Below are positions 1-54,053 of a stretch of DNA of 64,000 bases, one piece after another. Under the pieces are notes generated by a model. That model saw only the letters and a program-made list of their open reading frames with translations, had not been told where the DNA came from and did no database searches. The position numbers and the translations under genes are program-made. Positions within the stretch are counted from its first letter, which is position 1; every line of letters begins with the position of its first letter. This stretch comes from Ignisphaera sp. (GTDB lineage: Archaea > Thermoproteota > Thermoprotei_A > Sulfolobales > Ignisphaeraceae), in the NCBI GenBank assembly GCA_038889075.1, contig JAWAHS010000001.1:215764-279763 (forward strand), given 5' to 3'.

Positions 1-28
1 AGGTAGACAAGCGAGTATATACAATCTT

Positions 29-1285
29 TTGGCAAAGCTTGCAGAGGCTCTTATCAACGGCGTTGTAGAGCTCTACAATGTTGAGATCGAAGCGGATGAA
101 TTAACTCTTATATTACCTGAAACAGTAGCCGCACCCTCACAGATACCCATCCCAGTTGTGGTACCACCACCAAAGCAGATTGTTGAAGCTAAGCCTGAGG
201 TTGCAACAGCTACAGCCATAGCTAAAACCGTTGAGGTGGTGGCTAAGAAGGTTATTGAATTATCTAAAGTAGCTTTTGAAGAGCCTAGACCAAAGTACAG
301 CGGTAGAGTTGTTGAGGTAAGGCTCGGGGCTACAAAGGGTGAGGGTGGAACAAGGGAGAAGGCAATAGTCATCGGTGGCCATTCAATGCCTCCATACTTC
401 TACCTATCGGGTTATGGAGTTGGACATCCTCCAGCATTTGGTGGAGACACCTTTGATATGAAGATAGGACTACCTAGAGCGGTAAGACAGGTTTTTGGAG
501 ACGCTCTGGATAACCCTATCGAATGGGCAAAGTTGTGGATAGATAAATTTGGTGCTGAGGCGATAGATATACATCTGATCAGTACGGATCCAACAATAAA
601 AGATGCTTCGGCCAAAGAAGCTGTGAAGACTGTTGATATGCTTCTACAAGGTGTTAAGGTTCCTATAGTTGTTGGTGGAAGTGGCAATCCAGAGAAGGAT
701 GTTGAAGTGTTTAGAAGCATTGTTGAGGTCTTTCCAAGCGAAGGTCTGGTGATAAATAGTCTTAACCTAGATATGAAGCTCGAGGCAGTGTGTCCACACA
801 TAGCAAAGTCGAATGCTGTTGTAATAGACTTCTCTCCCATGGATCTCGATAAGGCTGAGCAAATCAATAGAAAGGTATACGAGTGGATTCCTAGAGATAG
901 AATAATCCTAGATCTAAATATTGGTGGCATAGGCTACGGAACAGAATATGGCTTTACGGTAATGGAAAGGGCTAGGCTAGCAGCATTGATAGGGAATGAG
1001 CTACTGGCTCATCCATTCAATGTAGGTGCAGCGAATGCCTGGGGTGCTAGAGAGGCGTGGATAACAATGGATCCTTACTGGGGACCTAAAGAGATTAGGG
1101 GACCCCTCTGGGAGACGCTTACATGTATACTATGTCTGTTGGCCGGAGCAGACTACTTCATGATCCTACACCCCTTAACAATGAAGGTACTGAGAGAGAT
1201 GAGGGAACAGCTATTTTCAGAACCCAGAATCAGTGACCCTGAAAAGGCACTACAGTGGCTTTCCTCAAAGCTACCCATTGTATAA
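29..1285 (+). CDS. cdhD: ACDS/CODH-ACS complex delta subunit (corrinoid Fe-S protein small subunit); may be 5'-truncated by the window edge
   Basis: Motifs EVRLGATKGEGGTR, IHLISTDP, GGSGNPEKD, GYGTEY...MERARLAAL, NAWGAREAW, GPLWE; frame is open to the window start; adjacent to cdhE. Confidence 0.93.
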   Translation: MAKLAEALINGVVELYNVEIEADELTLILPETVAAPSQIPIPVVVPPPKQIVEAKPEVATATAIAKTVEVVAKKVIELSKVAFEEPRPKYSGRVVEVRLGATKGEGGTREKAIVIGGHSMPPYFYLSGYGVGHPPAFGGDTFDMKIGLPRAVRQVFGDALDNPIEWAKLWIDKFGAEAIDIHLISTDPTIKDASAKEAVKTVDMLLQGVKVPIVVGGSGNPEKDVEVFRSIVEVFPSEGLVINSLNLDMKLEAVCPHIAKSNAVVIDFSPMDLDKAEQINRKVYEWIPRDRIILDLNIGGIGYGTEYGFTVMERARLAALIGNELLAHPFNVGAANAWGAREAWITMDPYWGPKEIRGPLWETLTCILCLLAGADYFMILHPLTMKVLREMREQLFSEPRISDPEKALQWLSSKLPIV

Positions 1286-1297
1286 GGTGATCACCAT

Positions 1298-2740: not shown

Positions 2741-2894
2741 CAATAGAATACAATAGAATATTTTTAACCAGCGAATACTATTTAGTTAGGCTTTTCATGT
2801 CTGACAAAGGCTAATCAAAAATACGGTCTTAAAAGGTAAAAACTTTCTAAAAGCATGTACTAAAATAGTAAAGGCATATTGAAGGAGGATAGCT

Positions 2895-4745: not shown

Positions 4746-5526
4746 GATGAGGAGACCATTTGTAACCTCCATTTCTGGTAAGGGTGGTAGTGGTAAGACT
4801 ATGCTAACAGCACTACTAACAAAGATTTTAATTGAACATGAAACTGGTGATGAAATTCTAATTGTGGATGGCGATCCAGCTACAAACCTGCCTGAAGCAC
4901 TAGGCATTGAGATTAGAAAGACCATTGGGGAGGTTGTTGAGGAATTTAAAAAGAGCTCCCAGGAACAGAGTTTTTCAGCCTCTTTTAGAAAGGATGCCCT
5001 GCTGGAGTACCTTATTATGAGGGATTGCTTAGTTGAGCTAGAACACTTCGACTTCATAGCCATGGGTCGTGGTGAGGGTGAGGGATGCTATTGTTTTATT
5101 AACGCTCTTCTCGTAGGGATTCTAAGTAAACTCATACACAACTATACAGTAGTTTTAATGGATATGGAGGCAGGGCTGGAGCACCTCAATAGAAGAACGG
5201 ATAGATACGTCAATACAATGGTAGTCGTTGTAGATCCCTCGAAAATGAGCTTCAAAACCGCAGAGAGAATTAGAGAGGTAATCGTAGAGGTGGGGCTAAA
5301 GGTGAATAACATGTACATTGTTGGAAACAAGATCCCTCAGGCAGATATGGAGAGGCTATACAATTGGGCTAAGAACATAGGCTACGAGGTCGCAGGTGTA
5401 GTACCGTACGACCCACTAATAGAAGAATTTAATACAAATGGAATTCCTCTCATAAAGCTACCCAGTAGTAGCATAGCAGTAAGAGCGGTAAAGGATGTAG
5501 CCAAGAGGATATCGCTAATAGACTAG
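4738..5526 (+). CDS. cooC: CooC/AcsF nickel-insertion ATPase for CODH/ACS
   Basis: GKGGSGKT P-loop, DGDPATNL, GEGCYC metal motif, DMEAGLEHL. Confidence 0.9.
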   Translation: MVRMRRPFVTSISGKGGSGKTMLTALLTKILIEHETGDEILIVDGDPATNLPEALGIEIRKTIGEVVEEFKKSSQEQSFSASFRKDALLEYLIMRDCLVELEHFDFIAMGRGEGEGCYCFINALLVGILSKLIHNYTVVLMDMEAGLEHLNRRTDRYVNTMVVVVDPSKMSFKTAERIREVIVEVGLKVNNMYIVGNKIPQADMERLYNWAKNIGYEVAGVVPYDPLIEEFNTNGIPLIKLPSSSIAVRAVKDVAKRISLID

Positions 5527-6155: not shown

Positions 6156-6261
6156 TGGTGCCGCGGCCGGGATTTGAACCCGGGTGTCCCGCACCATTAT
6201 TTGGATTTGGTGTCACGGGCTCGAGAGGCCCGCATACTTGACCGGGCTATACTACCGCGGC
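6156..6261 (-). tRNA. tRNA-Glu(CTC) with 28-nt intron at non-canonical position 45/46 (intron 6186-6213), CCA encoded
   Basis: Reverse complement gives GCCGCGG acceptor, CGGGC-CTCTCGA-GCCCG anticodon arm, CCGGG-TTCAAAT-CCCGG T arm and ACCA; the insert forms a bulge-helix-bulge-like motif. Confidence 0.93.
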
Positions 6262-14610: not shown

Positions 14611-14687
14611 GCCGCCGTAGCTCAGCCCGGTGGAGCGCCGGCCTTGTAAGCCGGTGGTCGCGGGTTCGAATCCCGCCGGCGGCTCCA
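14611..14687 (+). tRNA. tRNA-Thr(TGT), intronless, CCA encoded
   Basis: GCCGCCG acceptor, CCGGC-CTTGTAA-GCCGG anticodon arm, GCGGG-TTCGAAT-CCCGC T arm, TCCA end. Confidence 0.96.
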
Positions 14688-32571: not shown

Positions 32572-33975
32572 CTAGCTACTGGTTTCTCCAGACCTTACGA
32601 CAGACTCTACGGTTTTGCATACCTCTCTTAGACACTCCTGGAACTCATCATATGTAATTGCATGTGGATTTGACCCCCGTCTCCAAACGTATATTCTATA
32701 TCTATATCCACCATTTATAGGCTTGGTTAATCTAAACCTTAGCACCACATCTGAAATTGTCGAGAATATGTTGTGCAACTCTTCATTTATATATGATGCT
32801 ATTCGAATAACTAATAAACTCTGTTTTCGGAAGGCATTTAACTGGTTATATAGTATTGGTATAAATGTGCTCTTAGGTTCTACTAATGCTGGTAGTTCAG
32901 CACCGTGGAAGATGATAGCATCTATAGTTGGCGTTCTTCTAATTAGGGCTAGCTCTTCTGAGAATAGTCTATAGATACCATATGCAAATGGGTTATAGCT
33001 TTTCACAATGATATTTTCTCTTATAAATTTCTCTATAGCATCTCTATTTGGTGCTGTACTAAACGTTGTATATGTTCTTCCAAGTATATCGATGACTGTT
33101 TCTGGAGAATATCTATAGCTTACTGCAACGGCCCTTAGATTGTTCACAGCTAATATACCGAGTAGTAGAAGGGTGTAATCGGCAATCCTTGCATGTGCTG
33201 GATGTTCGATATACACTATGTGGCCTTTATGTAGATGTCCCCAGAGTTTTTCTAGAAGCCTACAAGGCAGTCTAAGCTCGATTTCTTGAGGTAGTATCTC
33301 CTCTAATAGTGGAGGCATCCATACCTCCAATCCAACATTCTGAGATATCGAGAATGGTATCTCAGCCAGTGTTATTAGAGCTCCTCTAGCCTTCCTAATT
33401 TCAATAATTCTATTCAATATTCCTCTTACTACCTGGTGCTTGAGAATAAATATCGCATCACTTACAAATTCTACTGAACCAAGCTCAATCTTCTCTTCAC
33501 CATATGGAACTTCAGCTATCAAAATCGTGATGCCATCAATACTTTTAGACATCTCATAGAAATAGTTCTGCAACCACGCCCTCTTAGCATCGTCCTTTAC
33601 AGATTGAAGAAGGGCATTTATAGAATCAATGATCACTATACTAGGTTTATATTCTAATAGAACTCCCGAAATGCTCTCAATACCATTTATATCTAGTACA
33701 ATAGGCAGTTTAATAAATCTCAATAATCCTCTTAATTCAACATCCTCGAGATCTATTCTAAGCCTCTTCATTACTCTGAATAGTTTTTCTTTTGTTTCTT
33801 GGAGGGATATGTAGAGGCATCTATATCCCCTTACAGCATTTGCATAGCATATAGTTGAAGCAAGGGTAGTCTTACCTGAGCCGGGATGGCCAGCAATAAC
33901 AATCATCGAACCGGGATGGAGAACATCACCATAGAATTTATCAAGATCATCGATACCAAATACATATTGGTTCAT
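32572..33975 (-). CDS. KaiC/RadA-like RecA-superfamily ATPase (second domain degenerate)
   Basis: FGIDDLD, GHPGSGKTT, IIDSI, EFVSD, IEIRKARG. Confidence 0.85.
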   Translation of the reverse strand: MNQYVFGIDDLDKFYGDVLHPGSMIVIAGHPGSGKTTLASTICYANAVRGYRCLYISLQETKEKLFRVMKRLRIDLEDVELRGLLRFIKLPIVLDINGIESISGVLLEYKPSIVIIDSINALLQSVKDDAKRAWLQNYFYEMSKSIDGITILIAEVPYGEEKIELGSVEFVSDAIFILKHQVVRGILNRIIEIRKARGALITLAEIPFSISQNVGLEVWMPPLLEEILPQEIELRLPCRLLEKLWGHLHKGHIVYIEHPAHARIADYTLLLLGILAVNNLRAVAVSYRYSPETVIDILGRTYTTFSTAPNRDAIEKFIRENIIVKSYNPFAYGIYRLFSEELALIRRTPTIDAIIFHGAELPALVEPKSTFIPILYNQLNAFRKQSLLVIRIASYINEELHNIFSTISDVVLRFRLTKPINGGYRYRIYVWRRGSNPHAITYDEFQECLREVCKTVESVVRSGETSS

Positions 33976-34128: not shown

Positions 34129-35487
34129 TCAAGTTTCTATTTTTATTCCGTGGTCTTCTACTTCCTTTACAGCTTTTTTATAGAGTTCTAACCACCATTT
34201 CTGTGGTTCTATGGTCTTCATGTTATAGAGTTCTGGAAATGGTTTACCGATATCCGGTTTCTCCATAGAGTGTGGATAGTACTTCTTTAGAAACACCTTG
34301 ACAATCTCATTAGCATCTCCCCTACTAAATCTTGTAGCAGCATATGCAATCTGAGCCATAAACCTAGCCTCCAAACCACTAGCATTAGGATACTTACCAT
34401 TAGTTGCACAAACTCCCAGAGGGTGGGATCCTGTAACCACATTTACTATAGTATTGGCCACTATTTCATGGAATATTGTGTATGATCCTGCACCATTGCT
34501 AGTCCATACATCGCCCATTAGGATGAAGGTATCCCCTATTGCTTGCCCAGCAATATTGAGGAGCCACATCGTCTCCGGTGTTGTTGTACTTACATATTTT
34601 GGGTGTATCGGATGTATTATATGGTAATCTGAAAAGTAAGCCGCTCTTCCAAGTATGAAGGATGCTATGAATCCTATAGCTACTCCTTCGGGACTTCCTA
34701 GAAAGCCCCCTATTACTGGGTCTACAAGCGTTACATTGAATCCTCCATAAGCTTTAAATGTATAGGCCTTAATTAAACGGTCATAATCGGTCTTCAAATC
34801 ATTCAATATTGGTACTAGATGGGCGTCGCTTCTCCTGAGTAACTCTGGTTTTTGAATAGCTAAATCACCAATACATGAAACACTGCTTTCTCCAGCAAGC
34901 AAATGAATTCCAGGTCTTCCTGCAGATAATGCGGCACTCCTTAAATACATCAATTCATGAATAGCTGCAAGTGCTTCAGCTGGTGATCTAGTCCTTACAT
35001 CTATTCCTTTCACTTGGGCTAATCCACCATGATTTATAGTATCAATTAGTAGCTCCTTCATATAGGATAGCGCCATCTCGTAGTAGAACTCTTCTGGGAT
35101 TGGAGCTCCTGCTTGCCCTCCCATTATTATTGGTTTTCTCTGATCCTCTATCTTTCTAGCATATAGTATTCTGGAATCCCTACCTTCACCAACTATAATC
35201 TCCTTAGGACTAGACTTTATAGCATATTTGAGCTCCTCTTCAGAAAACTTTACAACTCTTCTAGCATCAACAACATACATACCAACATCTAAAGCTAGCT
35301 GAAAACCTGCTTCAAATACAGATTTGGCTAGTGAACTATCTACAGAAACTATATAGTCTCTATCAAAAACAATATCAAACTCCTTCACCAACCTCTTCAC
35401 AGTACTATATATCCTCATATCAAACTCTCTCTCCTCCATAAACACTCCTTCCTCAATACGCTGCAAAACACTATACATCGACAGCAT
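34129..35487 (-). CDS. mtmB: Monomethylamine:corrinoid methyltransferase (MtmB) homologue 1, pyrrolysine-free (Leu at the Pyl-equivalent site)
   Basis: AGRPG...E.S.S, LNDLKTD, P.IGGF.G.PEG, P.HPKY.ST, GLEARFM, GKPFPELY match the MtmB pattern; no in-frame TAG; ATG at 35487 preceded by GAGGTGA. Confidence 0.88.
   Translation of the reverse strand: MLSMYSVLQRIEEGVFMEEREFDMRIYSTVKRLVKEFDIVFDRDYIVSVDSSLAKSVFEAGFQLALDVGMYVVDARRVVKFSEEELKYAIKSSPKEIIVGEGRDSRILYARKIEDQRKPIIMGGQAGAPIPEEFYYEMALSYMKELLIDTINHGGLAQVKGIDVRTRSPAEALAAIHELMYLRSAALSAGRPGIHLLAGESSVSCIGDLAIQKPELLRRSDAHLVPILNDLKTDYDRLIKAYTFKAYGGFNVTLVDPVIGGFLGSPEGVAIGFIASFILGRAAYFSDYHIIHPIHPKYVSTTTPETMWLLNIAGQAIGDTFILMGDVWTSNGAGSYTIFHEIVANTIVNVVTGSHPLGVCATNGKYPNASGLEARFMAQIAYAATRFSRGDANEIVKVFLKKYYPHSMEKPDIGKPFPELYNMKTIEPQKWWLELYKKAVKEVEDHGIKIET
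34136..34408. repeat. 273-bp inverted repeat, copy A (3' end of mtmB-1); partner 38645-38917
   Basis: Read-through comparison shows identical sequence in reverse complement. Confidence 0.9.
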
Positions 35488-35494
35488 CGCTATC
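35117..35494. repeat. 378-bp inverted repeat, copy A (5' end of mtmB-1); partner 37559-37936
   Basis: Identical in reverse complement from GATAGCGATGCTG to ATAATGGGAGG. Confidence 0.9.
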
Positions 35495-35518
35495 TTCACC
35501 TCTAATAATTTGATACCA

Positions 35519-36196
35519 CTACTTACTAGCTTTTTTCCTTTCCTCAATTAATTTCTTGGCAACGTTAACCGCCTCCTCAAAATGTTCACCATATCCATCA
35601 GCACCTATCTCCTGGGCCCATTCTCTAGTAACAGCTCCTCCACCAACCATAACAATAAATCTTTCACGAAGTCCTCTTTCTTTTAACATTTTAATTACAT
35701 CCTTGACATAGGGAAGGGAGGTGCTCATCAATGCGGAGATAGCTATTATATCAGCACCCGTTTCAATAGCTTTCTTAACAAAGAGATCTACAGGTACATC
35801 CCTTCCCAGATCGATTACATCAAAACCATGGGCTTTTAGCATCATTGCAACGATGTTTTTTCCAAGGTCATGGATGTCGCCTTGTATGGTTCCAATAACC
35901 ACTTTTCCAATTGTTATTTTCTCCTTCTGTGTTGCTGAAATTAGGGGTTCTATATGTTTTAGTGAAGCTTCAAATGCTTCTGCAGCCATCATGACCTCTG
36001 GGAGAAAGATTTCCAGTTTGGCAAATCTATCTCCAACGTTATTCATAGCTGTTATGAGACAATTATTGATAATATCTAAAGGTGGGTAACCAAGGTCTAT
36101 AAGCTTGGTTGTCAATTTACTAGCATTGTCAGCATTTCCGTTCTCGATGGACTCCATCAATTCTAAACATATTTTATCTGCACTTACACTGTTCAT
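35519..36196 (-). CDS. Cognate corrinoid protein (MtmC/MtbC family)
   Basis: B12-binding cap (FLPEVMMAAEA) plus GDIHDLG (DxHxxG), DLGRDVP, SALM, MVGG, IGADGY. Confidence 0.93.
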   Translation of the reverse strand: MNSVSADKICLELMESIENGNADNASKLTTKLIDLGYPPLDIINNCLITAMNNVGDRFAKLEIFLPEVMMAAEAFEASLKHIEPLISATQKEKITIGKVVIGTIQGDIHDLGKNIVAMMLKAHGFDVIDLGRDVPVDLFVKKAIETGADIIAISALMSTSLPYVKDVIKMLKERGLRERFIVMVGGGAVTREWAQEIGADGYGEHFEEAVNVAKKLIEERKKASK

Positions 36197-36403
36197 CGAA
36201 TGCACCACATATAGCTATTTGCTATAATAGTTCTTTTTAAATTTTACCTTAAATAATATACCCATTTAAGATGCGGTGCCAACGAAGTTGCGATAGATCG
36301 CCTATCTTACAATATTTATGTAAAAAATACCATGTGTGTGTAAACGAGAGTTTATATATACCTATTATATGTATGTAAAATCCAAAATAGATCTACCTTA
36401 GAG
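36197..36403. promoter_or_regulatory. Divergent promoter region for the corrinoid/mtmB-1 and BMP/mtmB-2/ABC units
   Basis: AT-rich intergenic segment between head-to-head genes with TATA-like tracts (TTTAAA near 36237, TTTATATATA near 36351). Confidence 0.5.
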
Positions 36404-37552
36404 GTGATTTATGTGGTTAATATTACTCTCAAACTCGCCTTAACTGCAGTAGTCTTACTAATAGTAGGACTGTTAGCTGGATATGGAATTGGAATGCAAT
36501 CCACTAAGAGCACACAGTTACCCGTAACATACACTACAACACTAACCAATACTATTACTATAACATACACTACAACATCTACAGTGACCATTGCTACCCC
36601 AACAATACCATCTGTAAAAGGACTTAAGGTTGCTGCTATATATGTTACACCCCTTGAAGAGCCGTGGAATACGGTGTTGCATACTGCATTAAGTTGGGCT
36701 AGGGAAAAATATGGTATTGATTATAGATACGTTGAAAAAGTTTCTGAGGCAGATGTTGAAAGTGTTATGAGGAGTTTAATTAATGCAGGTTATAGGGTGA
36801 TATTTGCCCATAGCTGGGGTTATAATGAGGTTACGAGAAAGATAGCTCGTGAATATCCTGATGTATTCTTCTTACAAGGCTCAGGCCCTGTTGATGTTGA
36901 CTGGCCATCCAATGTACTAGTCTACGACTACTATATCCAGGATGCAGCTTTTGTAGCAGGTGCTCTTGCAGGGTTATTAACAAAGAGTAATGTAATAGGA
37001 GTTGTAGCAGCATTTCCTGTTGAAGATGTTAATATACTAGTGAACGCTTTTATAGCAGGTGCCAGATATGTCAATCCAAATGTTAAACCTATTGTAACAT
37101 ATATTGAGAGCTGGTTCGATCCTGTGAAAGGACGTGAAGCAGCTGCAGCTCAAATAGCAGCAGGAGCGGACTTCATATATGCCGAAAGATATGGTGTTTT
37201 TGAAGCATGTTTAGATGCTATGAAATCAGGAAGAACTGTATATGCATTTGGAAATGTAGTTGATCAAAATGAGCTAGCACCAGATGTGGTGCTTGGAAGT
37301 GTTGCATGGGATCTCAAATCCTTTGTCGAATATGTTATAACAAACTATGTTGATGGTAGATTAGAGGGTGGGAAGATAATTATGTGGGGTATGAAAGAGG
37401 AGTGGGCAAAGTTTATATGGAATGAAAAGCTAAAGATTCAAATCCCAGAAGACGTTTTACAGAGAGTTTACGGAATAGAGTACATGATAATCAAGGGCGA
37501 GCTAGAAGTTCCAGTATATAGAGATTGGAATCCAAAGAGATGGGGTATCTAA
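36404..37552 (+). CDS. BMP-family ABC transporter substrate-binding protein (nucleoside/purine-type clade)
   Basis: N-terminal TM anchor and Thr-rich linker; NAFIAGARYVNP, ESWFDP, GADFI, GNVVDQ. Confidence 0.9.
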   Translation: MIYVVNITLKLALTAVVLLIVGLLAGYGIGMQSTKSTQLPVTYTTTLTNTITITYTTTSTVTIATPTIPSVKGLKVAAIYVTPLEEPWNTVLHTALSWAREKYGIDYRYVEKVSEADVESVMRSLINAGYRVIFAHSWGYNEVTRKIAREYPDVFFLQGSGPVDVDWPSNVLVYDYYIQDAAFVAGALAGLLTKSNVIGVVAAFPVEDVNILVNAFIAGARYVNPNVKPIVTYIESWFDPVKGREAAAAQIAAGADFIYAERYGVFEACLDAMKSGRTVYAFGNVVDQNELAPDVVLGSVAWDLKSFVEYVITNYVDGRLEGGKIIMWGMKEEWAKFIWNEKLKIQIPEDVLQRVYGIEYMIIKGELEVPVYRDWNPKRWGI

Positions 37553-37558
37553 GGGCTG

Positions 37559-37936
37559 GATAGCGATGCTGTCGATGTATAGTGTTTTGCAGCGTATTGA
37601 GGAAGGAGTGTTTATGGAGGAGAGAGAGTTTGATATGAGGATATATAGTACTGTGAAGAGGTTGGTGAAGGAGTTTGATATTGTTTTTGATAGAGACTAT
37701 ATAGTTTCTGTAGATAGTTCACTAGCCAAATCTGTATTTGAAGCAGGTTTTCAGCTAGCTTTAGATGTTGGTATGTATGTTGTTGATGCTAGAAGAGTTG
37801 TAAAGTTTTCTGAAGAGGAGCTCAAATATGCTATAAAGTCTAGTCCTAAGGAGATTATAGTTGGTGAAGGTAGGGATTCCAGAATACTATATGCTAGAAA
37901 GATAGAGGATCAGAGAAAACCAATAATAATGGGAGG
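37559..37936. repeat. 378-bp inverted repeat, copy B (5' end of mtmB-2)
   Basis: Identical to the reverse complement of 35117-35494. Confidence 0.9.
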
Positions 37937-38930
37937 ACAGTCTGGTGCACCTATACCCGAGGAATTTTACTACGAGATGGCACTATCCTATGCAATAGAA
38001 TCCTATGTAGATATACTATCCGTCGGAGGGCTTGCAAAGATAAGGGGAATAGATGTAAGGACTAGATCACCAGCCGAGGTTCTAGCAACTTTTCTAGAGC
38101 TATCATATCTTAGAATGGCTATACAAGCAGCAGGAAGACCCGGTATGCCAATTAAGGCCGGGGAAAGCAGTGTTTCAGCGCTAGGGGATCTAGCAATATT
38201 GGGAATGCTTAGAAAGACCGATGCACATCTAGTGGCACTGCTCAATGATTTGAAGACCGATTATGATAGACTAGCAAAAGCATTTGCATTCAAACAGTAT
38301 GGAGGTATAAACATAGCCTTAATAGATCCTGTTATCGGCGGCTTCCTAGGGGGTCCTGAGGGCGTAGTCGTAGGTTTAGTAGCTTCCAACATACTCTCCA
38401 AGATAATCTACATGGCTGATTTCATAATAAATCATCCGATACACCCAAAATATGTAAGTACAACAACACCAGAGACGATGTGGGTTTTGAGTACAATAGG
38501 ACAGACAATGGCCCACAATACCGACTTTATAGTAGTAGGCGATGTATGGACTAGCAATGGTGCAGGATCATACACAATATTCCATGAGATGGTCCCTGTC
38601 ACCATTTCCAATACTGTGTCAGGCCTTCATCTATGCGGCGTCGTTGCAACTAATGGTAAGTATCCTAATGCTAGTGGTTTGGAGGCTAGGTTTATGGCTC
38701 AGATTGCATATGCTGCTACAAGATTTAGTAGGGGAGATGCTAATGAGATTGTCAAGGTGTTTCTAAAGAAGTACTATCCACACTCTATGGAGAAACCGGA
38801 TATCGGTAAACCATTTCCAGAACTCTATAACATGAAGACCATAGAACCACAGAAATGGTGGTTAGAACTCTATAAAAAAGCTGTAAAGGAAGTAGAAGAC
38901 CACGGAATAAAAATAGAGACGTTCGAATAA
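37566..38930 (+). CDS. mtmB: MtmB homologue 2, pyrrolysine-free (Lys/AAG at the Pyl-equivalent site)
   Basis: AGRPGMPIKAGESSVS aligns to methanogen AGRPGMGV-O-GPETSLS; termini identical to paralogue 1. Confidence 0.88.
   Translation: MLSMYSVLQRIEEGVFMEEREFDMRIYSTVKRLVKEFDIVFDRDYIVSVDSSLAKSVFEAGFQLALDVGMYVVDARRVVKFSEEELKYAIKSSPKEIIVGEGRDSRILYARKIEDQRKPIIMGGQSGAPIPEEFYYEMALSYAIESYVDILSVGGLAKIRGIDVRTRSPAEVLATFLELSYLRMAIQAAGRPGMPIKAGESSVSALGDLAILGMLRKTDAHLVALLNDLKTDYDRLAKAFAFKQYGGINIALIDPVIGGFLGGPEGVVVGLVASNILSKIIYMADFIINHPIHPKYVSTTTPETMWVLSTIGQTMAHNTDFIVVGDVWTSNGAGSYTIFHEMVPVTISNTVSGLHLCGVVATNGKYPNASGLEARFMAQIAYAATRFSRGDANEIVKVFLKKYYPHSMEKPDIGKPFPELYNMKTIEPQKWWLELYKKAVKEVEDHGIKIETFE
38645..38917. 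repeat. 273-bp inverted repeat, copy B (3' end of mtmB-2)
   Basis: Identical to the reverse complement of 34136-34408. Confidence 0.9.
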
Positions 38931-38945
38931 GGGTTTTGATTAAAA

Positions 38946-40538
38946 ATGAATGCAATTTTTTCCCTTATGAAATCATCTTTACATACTCCTTTATTTATCG
39001 AGATGAGGGGTATAACTAAGATATATCTAAATAGAATACCAGCGCTAATAGATGTGGATTTCGATGTGAAGCCTTGTGAGGTGCATTGTGTAGTAGGGGA
39101 GAATGGTGCAGGTAAATCAACACTTATGAAGATTTTAGCAGGCGTCCTGAAGCCTACTAAAGGGGAGGTTCTGGTAAATGGTAAACACGTAGCATTTAGT
39201 TCACCTACCGATGCTCAGAGGTATGGTATCGGCATGGTTCACCAGCTATTTAATCTGGTTGAAAATCTTACGGTAGTGGATAATGTATTGCTACTTCTCC
39301 CACTATCTCTAAGGGAAAAGCTGTGGATTAATAGGAGGAGATTTGCTATAGATTTTAAGCAATTTTCTGAAAGGATCGGTCTGCCGATGGATCCCTTTGC
39401 TAAAGTTGGATCCCTTTCTGCTGGTTTAAAGCAAAGGCTTGAGATACTAAGGCTTCTCTATCTAGGATTCAGAGTTTTGATATTTGATGAACCCACATCT
39501 ATGCTGACTCCCATAGAGGCTGAAGAACTGTATAGATTTGTTAGAAATGCAAAGAGTAGTGGGATATCTATTATATGGGTGACACATAGATTAAATGAAG
39601 TGAATAGTATATGCGATAGGGTTACTGTTTTAAGAAAAGGTAAGGTAGTGAAACACCTTGCTGAAGAGGATATGCAACGGGGTATAGAATTAGCTGAGCT
39701 TGCATACTATATGGTTGGAGAAAATGGTTTAGAACATCTCCATAAAGTTGGGCACCGCGATTCTAAACTGCAATCCAACAAACCAATCCTTAGGATAGAA
39801 AATGCTGTGATTAAGGATGAACACAATGGTATTAAAATTAAGAACATAAATTTAGAGCTATATAGAGGAGAAATTCTAGGTATAGCAGGAGTCAGTGGTA
39901 ATGGACAGAAAGAGCTTGTAGAAGGATTGTTAGGGTATAGACCACTTGAAAAGGGTAAAATCACATTTGATGGCGTAGACGTAACTTTTATGGGTGTTAG
40001 CGAACGGCTGAAAATGGGTATAGCATACATTCCTGCGGAGAGATTAGAAAGAGGCGTTGCAGAAGATCTTAGTATTGTAGAGAACATGTATACGTACTGG
40101 ATTAACGCTATAGATAGTTTTAGAAAGCAACATCTCTTGAAGAAGAAGCTTCTCTACAATACAGCAGTAAATTTAATTAAAGAATATGATATCAGGACAG
40201 CTGATCCTAACTTTCCTGTAAAAACACTATCGGGAGGCAATATACAGAAACTTATTTTAGCACGAATATTTCAGAACCCCTATATAAAGGTTGTAATTGC
40301 TGAAGAACCTACTGCTGGTCTAGATGTAAAGACAACTAGATTTGTTCACAGAAAGATTATTGAGGCAAGTAGACAAGGAGTATCGTTCATAGTATTTTCC
40401 TCGGAATTAGATGAGTTGCTTAATTTGTCGGATAGGCTGGCTGTAATGTATGATGGGAGAATAACGAGGATATACGACTGTGTGGATACAATCAATATTA
40501 ATGAATTGAGTAGATATATGATGGGGTTGGATGGTTGA
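38946..40538 (+). CDS. ABC transporter ATP-binding protein (fused double-domain, CUT2/nucleoside type)
   Basis: GENGAGKST, MVHQ, FDEPT, GVSGNGQ, LSGGNIQK, SSELDE. Confidence 0.93.
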   Translation: MNAIFSLMKSSLHTPLFIEMRGITKIYLNRIPALIDVDFDVKPCEVHCVVGENGAGKSTLMKILAGVLKPTKGEVLVNGKHVAFSSPTDAQRYGIGMVHQLFNLVENLTVVDNVLLLLPLSLREKLWINRRRFAIDFKQFSERIGLPMDPFAKVGSLSAGLKQRLEILRLLYLGFRVLIFDEPTSMLTPIEAEELYRFVRNAKSSGISIIWVTHRLNEVNSICDRVTVLRKGKVVKHLAEEDMQRGIELAELAYYMVGENGLEHLHKVGHRDSKLQSNKPILRIENAVIKDEHNGIKIKNINLELYRGEILGIAGVSGNGQKELVEGLLGYRPLEKGKITFDGVDVTFMGVSERLKMGIAYIPAERLERGVAEDLSIVENMYTYWINAIDSFRKQHLLKKKLLYNTAVNLIKEYDIRTADPNFPVKTLSGGNIQKLILARIFQNPYIKVVIAEEPTAGLDVKTTRFVHRKIIEASRQGVSFIVFSSELDELLNLSDRLAVMYDGRITRIYDCVDTININELSRYMMGLDG

Positions 40539-41599
40539 TTAAACAGATGGTTACTATCAAGATTGTTAATGTTGTATCCTTTTTCTTAGGATTCTCCATA
40601 CTCTTACTATTCACCGTGTTACTTTTTCTAGTCGCAGGTCTGGATCCCCTTACTTCGATACATCTTCTATTCTATTACGGATTTGGTTCTCCTAATTATC
40701 TCGTTGAGGCTCTATTGAGGAGTGTTCCCCTATTACTCATAAGTCTAGGACTAATGTTCACCTTCATAGCCGGTGTATGGAATATAGGTGCTGAAGGTCA
40801 ATTCTGTATAGGTGCAATAGTTGCTGCCTCCATTGCACTATATACAGCTTGGATGCCCTTTCCCATACCTCTAATCCTAGCTACCATTGGAGGAGGTCTG
40901 GGTGGAGCCCTCTATGCTCTAGTACCAGCTTATCTACGTGCAGTTAGAAACATAAATGAAGTTCTTACATCGCTAATGTTGAACTATATCGCAATCTATT
41001 TTGTGAGCTATCTAATACTTGGTCCACTAAGAAATCCTACAACAAATTTTGCTGAAACACCACCAATACCTGAAACAGCAATAGCACCTCGAATCCTATC
41101 GGGTTACAGATTGAATTATCTTTCAATTTTAGCATTTACATTAATTCCAATTACATTGATAGTACTTAGCAAAACTGGTTTTGGAATGTCCATCAGATTC
41201 ATGGGCCAGAATCCCATAGCTGCAGACTTTATAGCCATTGATAGGAAAAGGCTTATTTTAAGAACAATGTTTATTAGTGGTTTTCTAGCTGGTTTAGCAG
41301 CTGCCCATGAAGTTTTAGGTGTTGTCCATGCCGTTAGGCAAGGGATATCCTCTAGCTATGGCTACATCTCAATTGGTATAGCTTATTTCGGTGGACTACA
41401 TCCTATAGGGATATTTCTTGTATCACTCCTTGCAGCAGGTATAATTAATGGCACTAGATTGATTTGCTTCTTTTTGGGAATCCCCATAGGACTATCCGAT
41501 ATTCTATTTGGTGCTCTACCTATATTTGTGTTCATATCAAATAGAGTTGTAGAGAGACTGATAGTTAACAGATTAATATATGGTAGGGGGGTGCAGTAA
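40535..41599 (+). CDS. ABC transporter permease (nucleoside type)
   Basis: WNIGAEGQ, NEVLTSLMLNY, SGFLAGLA. Confidence 0.9.
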   Translation: MIKQMVTIKIVNVVSFFLGFSILLLFTVLLFLVAGLDPLTSIHLLFYYGFGSPNYLVEALLRSVPLLLISLGLMFTFIAGVWNIGAEGQFCIGAIVAASIALYTAWMPFPIPLILATIGGGLGGALYALVPAYLRAVRNINEVLTSLMLNYIAIYFVSYLILGPLRNPTTNFAETPPIPETAIAPRILSGYRLNYLSILAFTLIPITLIVLSKTGFGMSIRFMGQNPIAADFIAIDRKRLILRTMFISGFLAGLAAAHEVLGVVHAVRQGISSSYGYISIGIAYFGGLHPIGIFLVSLLAAGIINGTRLICFFLGIPIGLSDILFGALPIFVFISNRVVERLIVNRLIYGRGVQ

Positions 41600-42546
41600 T
41601 GAGTACCGTAATTGTATATGATTTCCTTCGTGCTGTTGTTAGGGTTTCAGCACCGCTGTGCTATGCTGGTCTCGGCGAACTTCTTGTAGAGAAGACCGGT
41701 ATGTTAAATATATCAATTGAGGGAACCCTATGGCTTAGTTCGCTAGCAGCATTTATTATCAACTATTACTATGGAAATCCATACTATGGAGTTTTTGTTG
41801 GAATGTTTGTAGGTATGCTGTACTATCTCCTCTTCGGTCTTTTCTCTATATACATTGGGTTGAATCAGGTACTGATTGGTGTAGCACTAAATCTCTTTGC
41901 CTACGGATCCACATTCTATATATACAGATTTGTTTTTGAATGGAGGGAGAGAACAACAATACCATCTGTAAAGACCCTTATGGACGATCTTAGAATACCC
42001 TTCTTATCCGATGCACCTTTCCTTGGTGGTGTACTTTTCAATCAACCTATCACGGTATATGGACTCTATATCCTCATACCACTAGCATACTATCTTCTAA
42101 ATAAAACTATGTACGGACTCTATATTACATCCATAGGCGAGAATCCGGAGGCTTCTGATCGATTAGGTATATCGGTTTTCAAATACAGACTGCTATGTCT
42201 CTGTCTAGGAGGACTACTTGTCGGATTAGGTGGTTCCATCTTCACCACATACCTATCAAATATCTATTTGGATCAGATGATTGCGGGAAGAGGATTCATT
42301 GTCATAGCCCTCTTGATCCTAGGATCGTGGACGCCTTTAAAAACAATAGGTGCCATTCTACTATATTCATTTATTGAAGCTTTTCAATATAGATTTCAAG
42401 CACTCTTTGCGTCGCTAATGACATTCATACCATATCAGTTTGTATTAATGCTACCATACCTTACTACAATTATAGCATTGACAGTAATTGGAAGGAAAAT
42501 CAAACCTCCTGCGTGGCTTGGTAAACACTATACACGCATTAAATAG
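41599..42546 (+). CDS. ABC transporter permease (nucleoside type)
   Basis: GELLVEKTGMLNISIEG, GENPEA, AGRGFI, LPYL, PPAWLG. Confidence 0.9.
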   Translation: MSTVIVYDFLRAVVRVSAPLCYAGLGELLVEKTGMLNISIEGTLWLSSLAAFIINYYYGNPYYGVFVGMFVGMLYYLLFGLFSIYIGLNQVLIGVALNLFAYGSTFYIYRFVFEWRERTTIPSVKTLMDDLRIPFLSDAPFLGGVLFNQPITVYGLYILIPLAYYLLNKTMYGLYITSIGENPEASDRLGISVFKYRLLCLCLGGLLVGLGGSIFTTYLSNIYLDQMIAGRGFIVIALLILGSWTPLKTIGAILLYSFIEAFQYRFQALFASLMTFIPYQFVLMLPYLTTIIALTVIGRKIKPPAWLGKHYTRIK

Positions 42547-42635
42547 ATATATGGTGAAAGCATATAGGTAGGCATATTAGAGGGTGGTGCAGATGCTTAA
42601 GAAGTTGTTTAAAAATCTTGAAATCTTTTTAGTAG

Positions 42636-43649
42636 GTGGTTAATATGATTAAATCTAGCGAAAAGATTAATCTGCTATTAAGGAACGGATACTCAGAGGA
42701 GGTAGTAGTTTTCCCTATAGTAGGATACCACGCAGCATACGTTTATAATATACCGTTTTCCATATATGTTAGAGATGCTAAGAGGATGGCTGAAACTCAG
42801 TATAAGGTGCTTAAATACTATGGATCTGATTTCATAGCACCTGTCATGGATTTAACAGTAGAGGCTGAGGCACTAGGCGTTTCCGTATCGTGGAACTCCA
42901 TTCCACCATCAATACATAGCCACCTAACAGTTAATGATATGCACATCATTGATAGATTAGCCAGCAACTTTCTTAGTCTTGGAAGAATTCCAGTATTCCT
43001 TGAATCCATAAAGACGCTTAGAGAAATCGATAGAGACGATAAGATTATATGTGGTTATGTCACAGGCCCCCTTACACTGGCTGGGAATGTATTTGGCTAT
43101 GAAAATACTCTTAAATTAGTATTGAAGGATCCTCGTAAGCTTAGTGAAATCATCGATCTGCTCCAGAGGTTGTCAATTCCATATCTAAGGGCATTGGTAG
43201 AAAACGGAGCTGATTGCATCATTGTAGCGGATCCGTTATCGGCTTTAATATCTCCACAGCACTATACTACATTTTCACTTAAACCATTAAAGACAATTGT
43301 AGATGAGGTAGAGAGATTGAATAGAATTGCAATTCTACATACTTGTGGAAATGCTACCAGAATACTAAGGCTGATGGCTGAAACAGGTGCTCATATTCTA
43401 AGCATAGACAAATATGTAGATATAGGATTTGCGCTAACGAGCACCAATAGGGTAATAATGGGTAATGTGCCAACCACATTATTTCTAATGAGTGCTGAAA
43501 AAGTATCGGAATATACGCTATCTATTCTAAACATATCTATGGGAAGAAGACACATTATAGCATCAGGTTGCGAAATACCTCCATACTCAAACCCAGAGTG
43601 TATAAAAGCAATGGTATCTTCAGCAAAATCCTTTAGTATACGGAGCTAA
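42636..43649 (+). CDS. MtaA/MtbA-like methylcobamide methyltransferase (MT2, URO-D fold)
   Basis: DLTVEAEALG, GPLTLA, ADP, LHTCG (HxC) and SGCE zinc ligands, MGNV. Confidence 0.85.
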   Translation: MVNMIKSSEKINLLLRNGYSEEVVVFPIVGYHAAYVYNIPFSIYVRDAKRMAETQYKVLKYYGSDFIAPVMDLTVEAEALGVSVSWNSIPPSIHSHLTVNDMHIIDRLASNFLSLGRIPVFLESIKTLREIDRDDKIICGYVTGPLTLAGNVFGYENTLKLVLKDPRKLSEIIDLLQRLSIPYLRALVENGADCIIVADPLSALISPQHYTTFSLKPLKTIVDEVERLNRIAILHTCGNATRILRLMAETGAHILSIDKYVDIGFALTSTNRVIMGNVPTTLFLMSAEKVSEYTLSILNISMGRRHIIASGCEIPPYSNPECIKAMVSSAKSFSIRS

Positions 43650-44073: not shown

Positions 44074-45624
44074 GTGTATACCGTGTTCAAAGGGTTCAAG
44101 ATCATTCTTACAGGTGACGAAGGTCTTGTAAGTAGTTACTATGGTACATATTTGGGCTTTGCATCAAGTTTGCCTATGGACATCTTTCCAGCTATCCTCG
44201 GAGAGTTTCTATTCCCCATTAGAAGTGGGAAACATGGAAGGATGCTCACTAGCCAGTACGGCTTATGTAAAATCGAGGCTACATTACTGAATAGTGGTTT
44301 TTCAAGAAATGAAGTTGCCATTGTAGATCCTAGGAGACTTGAGGAAGCTATAGGTCCTGAGACCCGAGCTATCGGTATAGGAGTTCTCGATCCCCTTGGC
44401 GTTAATTATGGCACAGCCCTTCTAAGGATAGTGCTTAGACTTATTGGAATGGAAACTAGGCTTCAGTCATACATGTCCTGGGCAACAATGAAAATCTTCA
44501 ACAACCCTGCTGTTAAGGGTTATAGAAATAGGCTCAAGATTATTGTAGGTGGACAGGGTGTATGGGAGATAATTGACGGAGGTTTGCAGAGGAAACTCGG
44601 TATAGATACTATAGTTGAAGGTGAGGGGGAATTAGTTGCCCCTACATTATTTAAGGCAGCTGTTAATGGTATGCCTTTGCCCAGCTATATAAGGGGTCCT
44701 CCGGTTCCAGTTGATAGAATCCCTGTAATAAGGACACCATCAAGGGGATTTGTAGAGATAACTAGAGGATGTGGAAGAGGCTGCATGTTCTGTAACCCTA
44801 CATTACTCATGTTTAGGTCCATACCCTACGAAAATATCTCTAGAGAGATCCTCACTAATTTGATAGGAAATGAAAAAAGAATAACACTACACTCGGAAGA
44901 TTTCCTTAGATACGGTTCAACAAGCCTCTATCCAAATGAAGAAAAAATTACCAAAATGCTTGGAAATATCTTAAAGATTCCAGGCCTAGAGGAGGTTACA
45001 GTAGACTTTGTGGCAGCTTCTACAGTCATGCTCAATCCTAGACTTGTCAAAGCAGCTAGCGATATCCTAGGTATTGGAGGTAGAAATCGATCGTTGATTC
45101 AGATGGGTATTGAGAGTGCAAGTCCGAGAATAATCAAGCTGATTGCTCCAGGAAAACCTAAGCCCTTTAGCTATGAAAAATGGCCTGAAGTAGTAGAATC
45201 AGCTATTATCGTATTGAATGATACTGGTTGGTGGGTTTGTGCAACGATAATAGTGGAGCTACCTTTCGAACAACATGAAGATATAGAAAGTAATATAAAA
45301 ATGGTAGAGAAGTTGGAACACTACGATGTACTCGTACTCCCCCTACCATTTATACCATCGGGAAGTCTTAGAAGAATAAAGAAGTTTACCTCTTCACACA
45401 TCCTAACGCATGCTAGAAATCTAGAGCTAATAGCCATAGCAGTATATGATGCAGTGAAAAAGATAAGGAAACTCTCAAAGTATCTAGTTGCACGAGCTCC
45501 TATCGGGGTAAAGCAACTATTAGGAGGTTTGCTCTATATGGCAGCAACTATAGGTGTTAGAAAACTCCAGAGAGGTATTCTAGAGTTCAAGATGCAATCG
45601 TACCTTAATCGGTATTCACTATAG
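44074..45624 (+). CDS. B12-binding-domain radical SAM protein
   Basis: YGLCKIEA, DPLG, VGGQG, EGEGE, EITRGCGRGCMFC (CxxxCxxC), GIES. Confidence 0.85.
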   Translation: MYTVFKGFKIILTGDEGLVSSYYGTYLGFASSLPMDIFPAILGEFLFPIRSGKHGRMLTSQYGLCKIEATLLNSGFSRNEVAIVDPRRLEEAIGPETRAIGIGVLDPLGVNYGTALLRIVLRLIGMETRLQSYMSWATMKIFNNPAVKGYRNRLKIIVGGQGVWEIIDGGLQRKLGIDTIVEGEGELVAPTLFKAAVNGMPLPSYIRGPPVPVDRIPVIRTPSRGFVEITRGCGRGCMFCNPTLLMFRSIPYENISREILTNLIGNEKRITLHSEDFLRYGSTSLYPNEEKITKMLGNILKIPGLEEVTVDFVAASTVMLNPRLVKAASDILGIGGRNRSLIQMGIESASPRIIKLIAPGKPKPFSYEKWPEVVESAIIVLNDTGWWVCATIIVELPFEQHEDIESNIKMVEKLEHYDVLVLPLPFIPSGSLRRIKKFTSSHILTHARNLELIAIAVYDAVKKIRKLSKYLVARAPIGVKQLLGGLLYMAATIGVRKLQRGILEFKMQSYLNRYSL

Positions 45625-45742: not shown

Positions 45743-47978
<2,236 letters not shown>

Positions 47979-53898: not shown

Positions 53899-54053
53899 GG
53901 GCCCGTAGCTCAGCTAGGTAGAGCGGCGGACTATGAAAATGGGCCGAGGCTCCAGTTACTATGGGTCTGATGACCCTAGTGGGATGAAATGAAACTGGAG
54001 CGTTGATGGGAGAGACCCGTAGGTCGGGGGTTCAAATCCCCCCGGGCCCACCA
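53899..54053 (+). tRNA. tRNA-Trp(CCA) with two introns: 19 nt at 30/31 (53930-53948) and 59 nt at 37/38 (53956-54014)
   Basis: Removing both inserts gives a 77-nt cloverleaf with GCGGG-CTCCAGA-CCCGT anticodon arm and encoded CCA; both inserts form BHB-type motifs. Confidence 0.9.
53956..54014 (+). ncRNA. Intron-encoded box C/D-type guide for tRNA-Trp Cm34 and Cm39
   Basis: CTATGGGTCTG+ATGA pairs with tRNA 35-45 (D+5 gives C39); AACTGGAGC+G+TTGA pairs with 31-37+TT (D+5 gives C34); C'-like GGATGA lies between. Confidence 0.75.

Follow-up and report, generated by a model that had tools for sequence, protein, structure and literature searches.

The methyltransferases MttB, MtbB and MtmB have no significant sequence homology to one another (PMC9842639), and the MtmB of Methanosarcina barkeri (1NTH, 1L2Q, 1TV2-4), which carries pyrrolysine (Pyl) at position 202, works with MtmC and MtbA in a three-component system of a substrate methyltransferase (MT1), a corrinoid protein with a DxHxxG motif and a zinc methyltransferase of the URO-D type (MT2). 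MtmB proteins without pyrrolysine have been known for years; the first function assigned to one of them, MtqB of Methanococcoides methylutens Q3c, was characterised in 2026 in a study whose tree of 1,061 MtmBs consists mostly of proteins of unknown function (PMC13044021). Here we describe a gene cluster at positions 34129-43649 of a 64,000-nt stretch of Ignisphaera sp. DNA (hereafter, the window), in which two MtmB-family genes lie with genes for a corrinoid protein, a zinc enzyme of the URO-D family and a BMP-type ABC importer (Table 1; gene calls by Pfam and NCBIfam profiles). The cluster encodes a three-component corrinoid methyltransferase system built on Pyl-free MtmB. A first-pass annotation of this DNA had read it as an import-and-demethylate pathway that feeds methyl groups to ACDS (acetyl-CoA decarbonylase/synthase); the import and demethylation part of that reading is right, and the ACDS part is unproven.

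The cluster shares with MtmB/MtmC/MtbA the three-component logic of MT1, DxHxxG corrinoid protein and URO-D-type zinc MT2, and its MtmB proteins, like that of M. barkeri, span PF05369 at full length and keep GRPG...x...ES around the Pyl strand; unlike the M. barkeri enzyme, to which they are only 30-40% identical (read by eye from alignments), they have Lys or Leu at position 202 and are encoded alongside a BMP-type ABC importer. MtqB, with its cognate corrinoid protein MtqC, is also a non-Pyl member of the MtmB family; however, it is a methanogen enzyme that feeds coenzyme M (CoM), and no transporter is mentioned for it (PMC13044021), whereas the clade of the window proteins is specific to Thermoproteota and contains paired paralogues. 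PMC13044021 gives conserved Met/Cys and aromatic residues near the ligand as marks of the MtqB clade. The non-Pyl MttB proteins (COG5598; MtgB and others), quaternary-amine methyltransferases from an unrelated sequence family, share the theme of Pyl-free kin that rely on a corrinoid protein and an activase and take intrinsically activated, cationic N-methyl donors; according to PMC9723716 and PMC8630106, those systems use an MtrH- or pterin-type MT2 and not a URO-D enzyme.

Profile searches placed both window proteins in the MtmB family at full length and far above the gathering score: copy A scored 325.9 bits and copy B 304.6 bits against PF05369 (cutoff 25; profile positions 2-450 of 450). 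M. barkeri MtmB was matched by copy A (1TV2/1L2Q, E about 1e-65) and by copy B (1L2Q/1NTH, E 6.7e-59), and no NCBIfam model matched either copy at E <= 1e-5. The Pyl202 of M. barkeri, the X of GRPGMGVXGPETS, aligns to K197 of copy A (GRPGMPIKAGESS; codon AAG, 38154-38156) and to L197 of copy B (GRPGIHLLAGESS; codon CTT, 34897-34899), and neither gene has an in-frame UAG at this position. The first-pass annotation had announced two MtmB-family genes without amber codons, and indeed neither contains an in-frame TAG, TGA or TAA. No pylTSBCD gene was seen among the open reading frames (ORFs) of at least 100 aa in the window, which spans 64 kb of the genome, and the tRNA scans of the window returned a tRNA-Thr at 14611-14687 (ARAGORN) and three generic tRNA matches (Rfam). 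Both window proteins are true MtmB-family members without pyrrolysine. The copy B gene call had opened at a TTG at 35547; the ATG at 35487 (MLSMYSV...) is the more likely start, because it is where the Ignisphaera protein P0003 starts and also where the inverted repeat common to copies A and B opens.

The residue at the Pyl column was then compared across the family, for which a word-indexed search gave 224 matches and an exhaustive search 813 cluster representatives (50% identity) at E <= 1e-3, 199 of these at E <= 1e-30. Among 121 close relatives the column holds Leu in 60, Val in 30, Ile in 27, Lys in three and Met in one, with all three Lys residues contributed by copy A and the two proteins closest to it. 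A wider alignment comprised 152 sequences, namely 150 listed cluster representatives (50% identity) and the two window copies; in the 129 of them with at least 430 aa the column is very variable (L24, I14, V13, G12, T8, C7, A7, F6, S6 and others), and Lys, which is rare in the family, occurs in only one listed representative besides copy A. This representative, P0152 (462 aa; GRPGTPIKGK), is ~35% identical to copy A, and its Lys is an independent occurrence.

The wider distribution of the cluster was assessed in a scan of one genome per species, which yielded 54 loci (labelled L001 onwards); the scan patterns were built from 23 closer sequences, so that they favour type-1-like proteins and are blind to Pyl-type MtmBs, and neighbourhoods were counted by searching the window proteins against every ORF of the fetched locus flanks. 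A corrinoid protein, a Pyl-free MtmB and a BMP importer occur together in 29 of the 54 loci, the holders including Desulfurococcales, nearly all Methanomethylicota (the cultured LWZ-6 and LCB70 included) and some Chloroflexi. The corrinoid protein is adjacent in 39/54 loci, the URO-D protein in 8/54, and a RACo-type activase is present within the cluster in 7/54. BMP-type ABC genes were found in the flanks of 24 of the 30 Thermoproteota type-1 loci and of five of the 13 bacterial loci, all five from Chloroflexi/Anaerolineae; they were found in none of the flanks of the 11 Thermofilaceae-type loci. Five of the six type-1 loci without ABC genes are on contigs that stop short of the position at which their relatives have these genes (L015, L019, L021, L030 and L052), and the sixth, L026, is the second copy of a sister metagenome-assembled genome (MAG). 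This conserved clustering is strong evidence for functional coupling of MtmB, corrinoid protein and importer, and it supports the import-and-demethylate unit proposed in the first-pass annotation, since the genes are kept together in 24/30 Thermoproteota type-1 and 5/13 bacterial loci. The divergent arrangement of binding-protein and corrinoid-protein genes recurs in L002-L004 in the locus comparison.

Both window copies fall within a Thermoproteota type-1 clade in a 95-row tree (SH-aLRT 99). This clade has two branches, one of Ignisphaera and Desulfurococcales and the other of Methanomethylicia, the latter with Methanosuratincola petrocarbonis LWZ-6 and M. verstraetei LCB70. The partial genes of four loci (L026, L030, L046 and L052) were assigned to type 1 by identity and record title and not by this tree, and L026 was afterwards placed by a tree of the central region. 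A deeply diverged type-2 MtmB paralogue stands beside type 1 in most Desulfurococcales and Methanomethylicota loci (L002-L025, L028 and L046; for example, L028 11383-12759); these proteins have Asn at the Pyl column, followed by D-V/I-A, and form a separate clade of 24 sequences. The window cluster has no type-2 MtmB, and has the Lys-bearing (K-type) copy instead. The orthologous module of LWZ-6, locus L028, consists of genes for the corrinoid protein, MtmB type 1, MtmB type 2 and the BMP-type ABC importer.

The importer itself offers clues to the substrate. Its four genes are, as had been annotated, those of a BMP-type ABC importer by Pfam (a BMP protein, a double-NBD ATPase and two BPD_transp_2 permeases), and the best NCBIfam matches of the importer were "putative B6 ABC transporter" models, all under cutoff (for the ATPase, NF047930 at 429 bits against a cutoff of 670). 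The binding protein has an N-terminal membrane anchor followed by a Thr-rich linker, and its closest solved relatives are AtzT (6PI5, E 3.8e-33) and a Brucella protein (3S99, E 4.2e-30); the nucleoside binder TmpC/PnrA (2FQW) matched at E 1.4e-8 only. PnrA-like nucleoside binding was set aside as the default reading, because the nearest solved relatives are free-purine binders. Within the linker, window positions 36525-36596 hold two copies of a 36-nt tandem direct repeat that are 75% identical. According to PMC6834077, AtzT binds free guanine (KD 110 nM) and adenine (2.5 uM) and not GTP, 3S99 was modelled with adenine, and the purine-base-binding BMP pocket consists of an aromatic sandwich and a Ser/Glu/Asn/Asn hydrogen-bond set. 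The window protein shares with AtzT/3S99 and with the PnrA/TmpC importers the PF02608 fold family and the four-gene ABC architecture; unlike AtzT and 3S99, it is archaeal, membrane-anchored through the Thr-rich linker and genetically coupled to corrinoid methyltransferases.

A HMMER alignment to AtzT predicts a pocket made up of W88, N89, S137, W138, D208, W237, E261 and Y263; with a shift of five between the chain index and the numbering in print, the residue type agreed at each of the six published positions that were compared. The stacking Trp194 and the Ser97 of AtzT are kept as W237 and S137, Phe98 corresponds to W138, and the acidic character of Glu165 is kept in D208; Tyr45 corresponds to N89, with W88 adjacent, and Asn218 and Asn220 are changed to E261 and Y263, respectively. 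Seven of the mapped columns are invariant in 19/19 Thermoproteota MtmB-linked binding proteins (18 loci and the window, with LWZ-6 and LCB70 included), and the column of Y263 is Tyr in 16 of the 19. All five Chloroflexi binding proteins have W237, an aromatic residue at 88 and an acidic one at 261. Because these pocket columns are shared across the Thermoproteota and Chloroflexi proteins, the same kind of ligand is probably imported throughout.

Eight loci were fully annotated, and all 54 were then searched systematically for xanthine-dehydrogenase (XDH)-family and deaminase genes. Genes for XDH-family molybdoenzymes lie directly beside MtmB in five of the 54 loci, from three MtmB subclades: L004 (Desulfurococcaceae), L041 (Anaerolinea), L044 (Bacillota), and L048 and L049 (Chloroflexi). 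The last two also carry a gene of the adenosine/adenine-deaminase family between the ABC genes and the corrinoid protein, and in L049 a Rieske/VanA-type oxygenase gene follows MtmB. The relatives of the binding protein and the XDH and deaminase neighbours point to a planar purine-type N-heterocycle as the ligand, and the methylated purines that the first-pass annotation had listed among possible donors thereby gain support, from the purine-binder-like protein in the window and from the catabolic neighbours in 5/54 loci. As a separate observation, L049 (130-17286) and L048 bring together GntR regulators, a BMP ABC importer, an XDH-family large subunit, the deaminase-family gene, a corrinoid protein, MtmB, a Rieske/VanA-type oxygenase, TetR and RACo, genes that together resemble an entire catabolic island devoted to an N-methylated heterocycle.

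The proteins that would accept and pass on the methyl group were also examined. The corrinoid protein scored 212.2 bits against TIGR02370, just under the cutoff of 215.3; it combines a cap with a Rossmann B12-binding domain, and the DxHxxG motif claimed for it is present as GDIHDLG. The URO-D protein aligned to MtaA (4AY7, E 7.9e-29), with LHTCGN...SGCEI opposite LHICGN...PGCGI, and so keeps the H-x-C...C of the MtaA/MtbA-like zinc enzyme that had been annotated here. Its zinc-motif residues are H235, C237 and C312, which we take to be the zinc ligands; the triad is also kept in five archaeal cluster-linked homologues (L001, L002, L004, L005 and L010), which makes six of six with the window protein. 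The score was below all curated MtaA/MtbA cutoffs (TIGR01463, 173.8 vs 235.4; NF004889, 170.4 vs 244) and also below NF040654 (146.9 vs 400) and NF041608 (120.7 vs 600). The cluster-linked URO-D proteins of Anaerolineae (L041, L051 and L053; 455-471 aa) are ~120 residues longer and in all three the zinc-ligand His is replaced by Phe (FFVCGD); these proteins may work differently from the archaeal ones.

According to PMC8630106, the MtaA/CmuA (URO-D) family also holds substrate-side methyltransferases, and MtoA, the archaeal enzyme that passes a corrinoid-bound methyl group to pterin, is MtrH-like; a role of the URO-D enzyme as an MtoA-like tetrahydromethanopterin (H4MPT) methylase was rejected on the latter ground. 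The Mto cluster (MtoA-D) of Methermicoccus shengliensis, as described there, is archaeal and combines paralogous MT1s with a single corrinoid protein and a 2Fe-2S RACo-type activase, has transporters close by, and delivers methyl groups to the H4MPT branch and not directly to CoM; however, its MT1 is URO-D/MtvB-like and its MT2 MtrH-like, whereas the window has MtmB-like MT1s and a URO-D-like protein as the sole MT2 candidate. Type 1 mlp clusters also join MtaA-like zinc enzymes to a corrinoid protein and an activase outside methanogens (PMC10418091), but, as given in that source, they are defined by two or more same-strand genes for MtaA-like proteins and lack MtmB, whereas the window cluster encodes one MtaA-like protein and two MtmBs.

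The RACo activator and the corrinoid iron-sulfur protein genes stated to be in the same DNA are indeed present, at 2-5526; a distance of 30 kb, occupied by ribosomal and further housekeeping genes, separates them from the cluster. The window RACo matched the in-cluster RACo of L002 with 340.6 bits (E 1.3e-103) and is a possible activator of the MtmB-linked corrinoid protein; related Desulfurococcales clusters carry an activase of their own. No MtrH-family gene was seen among the window ORFs of at least 100 aa, and no mcr was found in the 64-kb window, so the host, unlike M. barkeri, is probably not a methanogen. The description of the system as complete was not borne out, since the sole activase of the window stands 30 kb away beside cdh and a methyl-H4MPT-forming enzyme was not found there. 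The proposed feeding of methyl groups to ACDS turned out to be conjecture, the cdh and RACo genes being distant and the MT2 candidate having the zinc motif of thiol methylases and not that of a pterin methylase. Methyl flow to ACDS is plausible for the lineage, but the window does not show it, because the activase is remote, an MtrH-family gene was not seen and the evidence on the URO-D acceptor is ambiguous. As for the lineage, Berghuis 2019 (PMC6421429) reports that Ignisphaera MAGs hold the full set of Wood-Ljungdahl genes together with MtrH and Fae, and that Desulfurococcales have Pyl-free methyl-compound methyltransferase genes; with these and the non-Pyl MtmBs (PMC13044021) already published, the surprise that the first-pass annotation attached to finding such a system here was overstated.

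The two MtmB genes of the window form an inverted duplication with a mosaic structure. The first 371 nt of the coding sequences together with 7 nt upstream are 100% identical, as are the last 276 nt, and each 5' arm takes in these 7 nt and runs ~426 nt into its gene; the central ~235 codons, in contrast to these ends, are about 65% identical between copies A and B (dS 2.2, dN 0.27). Between the orthologues of two Ignisphaera genomes, the central region evolves at dN/dS 0.039 (K-type) and 0.042 (L-type), and the gene ends change faster (dN/dS 0.10-0.15). Both copies are under purifying selection, and these figures indicate that they are old paralogues that are both functional and distinct. In a central-region tree, a K clade of four sequences (support 100/100, branch length 0.32) lies on a long branch inside the Desulfurococcales type-1 clade, and its internal branching mirrors that of the L clade. 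The sister MAG has the same architecture: its K-type (L026) and L-type (L001) proteins do not differ at all in their final ~90 residues (100% identity) and match at 50-79% in the centre, and their end sequences are not those of the window. The proteins P0002 and P0004 are likewise 90-100% identical at the ends and 57-80% in the centres, whereas a more distant third K/L pair (P0005/P0007) has no homogenised ends. The cassettes have also swapped positions between genomes, as the K-type gene lies between the binding-protein and ATPase genes in the window, whereas an L-type gene precedes the ATPase gene in L001 (82% nucleotide identity to copy B vs 72% to copy A). We read this as concerted evolution, in which the inverted arms would undergo gene conversion or inversion while selection apparently holds two distinct active-site cassettes.

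Taken together, these observations suggest a conserved import-and-demethylate unit. A surface-tethered BMP-family binding protein and its ABC transporter would import an N-methylated compound; either of the Pyl-free MtmBs would then move the N-methyl group to the Co(I) form of the corrinoid protein encoded between them, an MtaA-like zinc enzyme or an MtrH-type enzyme encoded elsewhere would unload it, and a RACo-type activase would repair oxidised cobalt. The K-type and L-type proteins differ only in their central, active-site-bearing two thirds and would probably serve two substrates, or two methyl positions on one, and a methyl group on a positively charged ring nitrogen would make pyrrolysine unnecessary. 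Gene content, family membership, the lack of Pyl, the conservation of the module, the mosaic structure and purifying selection on both copies are seen in the sequences themselves, whereas what the substrate is, which way the methyl group flows, what accepts it and whether it reaches ACDS are inferred from them; for the unit as a whole, with an N-methylated purine-like heterocycle as the likeliest substrate, we put the chances slightly below even. A bolder proposal is that Thermoproteota, including M. petrocarbonis and M. verstraetei, and some Chloroflexi share an unrecognised pathway in which N-methylated purines or other N-methyl heterocycles would be imported through a purine-type BMP ABC system and demethylated by Pyl-free MtmBs, and that Ignisphaera has evolved a variant with Lys at the very site of pyrrolysine, itself a lysine derivative, whose cassettes lie between homogenising inverted repeats and are exchanged between genomes; in this full form, it is possible but doubtful.

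Several points weigh against a purine-like substrate and the scheme built on it. The pocket was mapped by a single pairwise alignment, and both guanine-bonding Asn residues of AtzT are replaced in it (N218 by E261 and N220 by Y263); because these hydrogen-bonding residues are changed and the predicted pocket has four aromatic (W88, W138, W237 and Y263) and two acidic (D208 and E261) residues, it would suit a small cationic amine too. No XDH-family or deaminase gene was found in the window, nor in 49 of the 54 loci. The cluster-side URO-D enzymes are heterogeneous, being 24-65% identical to that of the window and absent from the Methanomethylicota loci, and the window yielded no enzyme that forms methyl-H4MPT. 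The sole characterised non-Pyl MtmB, MtqB, acts on quaternary amines and not on heterocycles according to PMC13044021, and LWZ-6, which holds the orthologous module L028, is reported to reduce monomethylamine (MMA) to methane (PMC12244365). Finally, every step of the scheme was drawn from sequence.

The main rival, which we consider unlikely, is a Pyl-independent MMA system, in which the ABC genes would encode a high-affinity methylammonium importer and the type-1 MtmB would demethylate MMA. LWZ-6 with its L028 module is reported to reduce methanol and MMA, and not dimethylamine, trimethylamine, betaine or methanethiol (PMC12244365); Berghuis 2019 saw pyrrolysine only in methyltransferases of Methanosarcinales and Methanomassiliicoccales (PMC6421429); MtqB has a trace MMA activity (PMC13044021); and the four aromatic and two acidic residues of the predicted pocket are as expected of a cation box. 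However, pylSBCD genes are reported in some Methanomethylicia (PMC9723677; PMC5424206), so LWZ-6 may use a Pyl-MtmB, and its growth on MMA was on this ground not accepted as proof of Pyl-free MMA use. The family also has precedents beyond MMA: MtqB uses tetramethylammonium and choline (PMC13044021), and strain DCMF, as reported in PMC9768040, has non-Pyl MtmBs and cannot use MMA for growth, yet a non-Pyl MtmB is its most induced protein on dichloromethane. Furthermore, the BMP-family proteins with solved ligands bind purines or nucleosides, XDH-family and deaminase neighbours would be senseless for MMA, and one single-carbon substrate would hardly account for clusters that hold two or three diverged paralogues. 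Quaternary amines (tetramethylammonium, choline or similar compounds) would follow the example of MtqB, the only non-Pyl MtmB to have been characterised (PMC13044021), and the aromatic-rich predicted pocket could hold a quaternary ammonium group; nevertheless, we regard them as distinctly improbable substrates, as betaine is not used by LWZ-6 (PMC12244365) and PMC13044021 mentions no transporter. The window proteins are, moreover, ~37-40% identical to most of their non-Thermoproteota relatives. To our knowledge, importers of quaternary amines belong to other families, which also counts against such substrates.

A different use of the same genes would be salvage or detoxification, in which imported modified bases would be demethylated for reuse and the methyl group would pass to a thiol through the zinc URO-D enzyme and not to ACDS. 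The thiol-methylase zinc triad of the MT2 candidate, the 30-kb distance of the cdh genes, the fact that no pterin methyltransferase was found in the cluster or the window, and the reported link of MtaA-like proteins in non-methanogens to methyl-sulfur or methyl-selenide metabolism (PMC10418091) all favour this; but MtrH and a full Wood-Ljungdahl pathway are reported in Ignisphaera MAGs (PMC6421429), an equal module in methanogens would naturally feed methyl-CoM, and the upkeep of two or three MT1 paralogues and an ABC importer suggests substantial flux, so that we judge a mainly salvaging module to be improbable. It was also considered whether the locus or the identical gene ends could be an artefact of assembly or binning, as the assembly is of the metagenome type and mis-joins can yield identical inverted repeats. 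The window, however, is rich in archaeal housekeeping genes and even in GC content along its length; the right flank of the locus shares ~11 kb of synteny, at 70-80% nucleotide identity, with the contig of another uncultured Ignisphaera MAG (L001); and copy B is identical at 451/452 residues to P0003, a protein of an "Ignisphaera sp." MAG at NCBI. The named matches of the uL10 protein are all Ignisphaera down to ~49% identity (best named match 72%, I. aggregans 51%), and together with the P0003 match this confirms the crenarchaeote host of the first-pass annotation, which had also raised the possibility of a chimeric contig; on the evidence of the housekeeping genes, uL10 relatives, P0003 identity, even GC and L001 synteny, a chimera is very unlikely. 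The sister genome has an equal mosaic pattern with different end sequences, and an assembly origin of the identical ends was rejected on the mosaics of L026/L001 and P0002/P0004 and on the divergence figures; an artefact of any kind is thus extremely improbable.

The preferred reading, import and demethylation of an N-methylated purine-like heterocycle, narrows the "unknown N-methyl compound" of the first-pass annotation to a short testable list. Most non-Pyl MtmB homologues have no known function, and an archaeal clade of them is now tied to an importer type, a ligand pocket and some catabolic genes for purines or N-heterocycles. What is new here is a module common to cultured methanogens, an invariant pocket derived from purine binders, catabolic neighbours, a Lys-for-Pyl paralogue and the homogenisation of gene ends. 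No paper was found that links Pyl-free MtmB to BMP-type importers or purine-catabolic genes, although no dedicated search on MtmB with purine or BMP was made, and none was found on a Lys variant at the Pyl position or on mosaic MtmB paralogues; the words transporter, purine, nucleoside and Thermoproteota do not occur in PMC13044021. With the orthologous module present in an isolate, M. petrocarbonis LWZ-6, a cultured organism is at hand in which to ask what the substrate is, and the K-type/L-type pair with its homogenised ends is a natural domain-swap experiment for mapping specificity in the MtmB fold. If the substrate is a methylated nucleobase, the range of compounds known to support methanogenesis and to supply the Wood-Ljungdahl pathway in hot habitats without oxygen would be wider; the shared pathway, if true, would add a new class of methylotrophic, potentially methanogenic, substrates; and if the substrate is MMA, its demethylation would not require pyrrolysine.

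Table 1. Features of the cluster and of the cdh end of the window, with positions counted from the first nucleotide of the window
Feature	Position	Strand	Remarks
MtmB-family methyltransferase, L-type (copy B)	34129-35487	-	452 aa; PF05369 E 1.6e-90
Corrinoid protein, methyltransferase-cognate	35519-36208	-	PF02607 (B12-binding_2) + PF02310 (B12-binding)
Divergent intergenic region, AT-rich	36209-36403		separates corrinoid-protein operon from importer operon
BMP-family (Bmp/PnrA-like) substrate-binding protein	36404-37552	+	PF02608 E 3.3e-47
MtmB-family methyltransferase, K-type (copy A)	37566-38930	+	454 aa; PF05369 E 5.3e-97
ABC importer ATPase, two nucleotide-binding domains (NBDs)	38946-40538	+	PF00005 in two stretches
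ABC importer permease 1	40535-41599	+	PF02653 (BPD_transp_2) E 8.9e-38
ABC importer permease 2	41599-42546	+	PF02653 (BPD_transp_2) E 1.6e-29
URO-D/MtaA-CmuA-family zinc methyltransferase, presumed MT2	42636-43649	+	PF01208 E 1e-61
5' arm of inverted duplication	35062-35494		partner 37559-37991; 433 nt, 97% complementary
3' arm of inverted duplication	34133-34408		partner 38645-38920; 276 nt, 100% complementary
CdhD (ACDS corrinoid iron-sulfur component)	2-1285	+	5' end cut by window; TIGR00381 325.7 bits, cutoff 252.9
CdhE (ACDS corrinoid iron-sulfur component)	1298-2740	+	NF003195 554.6 bits, cutoff 306
RACo-type corrinoid reductive activase	2895-4745	+	Fer2 + Raco_middle + RACo_C_ter; adjoins cdhDE
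CooC-like ATPase	4738-5526		window end near cdhDE

Genes flanking the cluster were also compared between the two Ignisphaera genomes. An NfnAB/sulfide-dehydrogenase-like pair (DHODB Fe-S domain; Fer4_20 + Pyr_redox_2) is kept 3' of the cluster in both, at 45743-47978 (+) of the window and 6194-8438 of L001. In the window, a radical SAM protein of 516 aa, which weakly matches families of B12-binding radical SAM proteins (TIGR04013, 52 bits), is encoded at 44074-45624 (+), between the URO-D gene and the Nfn-like genes; in L001 the Nfn-like genes stand directly 3' of the URO-D gene, so the radical SAM gene is an indel difference and not a conserved part of the module. On the other side, a 467-aa ATPase of the KaiC/RecA superfamily is encoded directly downstream of MtmB copy B (32572-33975, -); it was not found beside the K-type copy of the sister MAG (L026), whose downstream neighbours include adenylate kinase and alanyl-tRNA synthetase. 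Elsewhere in the window, Rfam gave tRNA matches of 103 nt at 6159-6261 (-) and of 152 nt at 53899-54050 (+), which ARAGORN missed and which probably contain introns.

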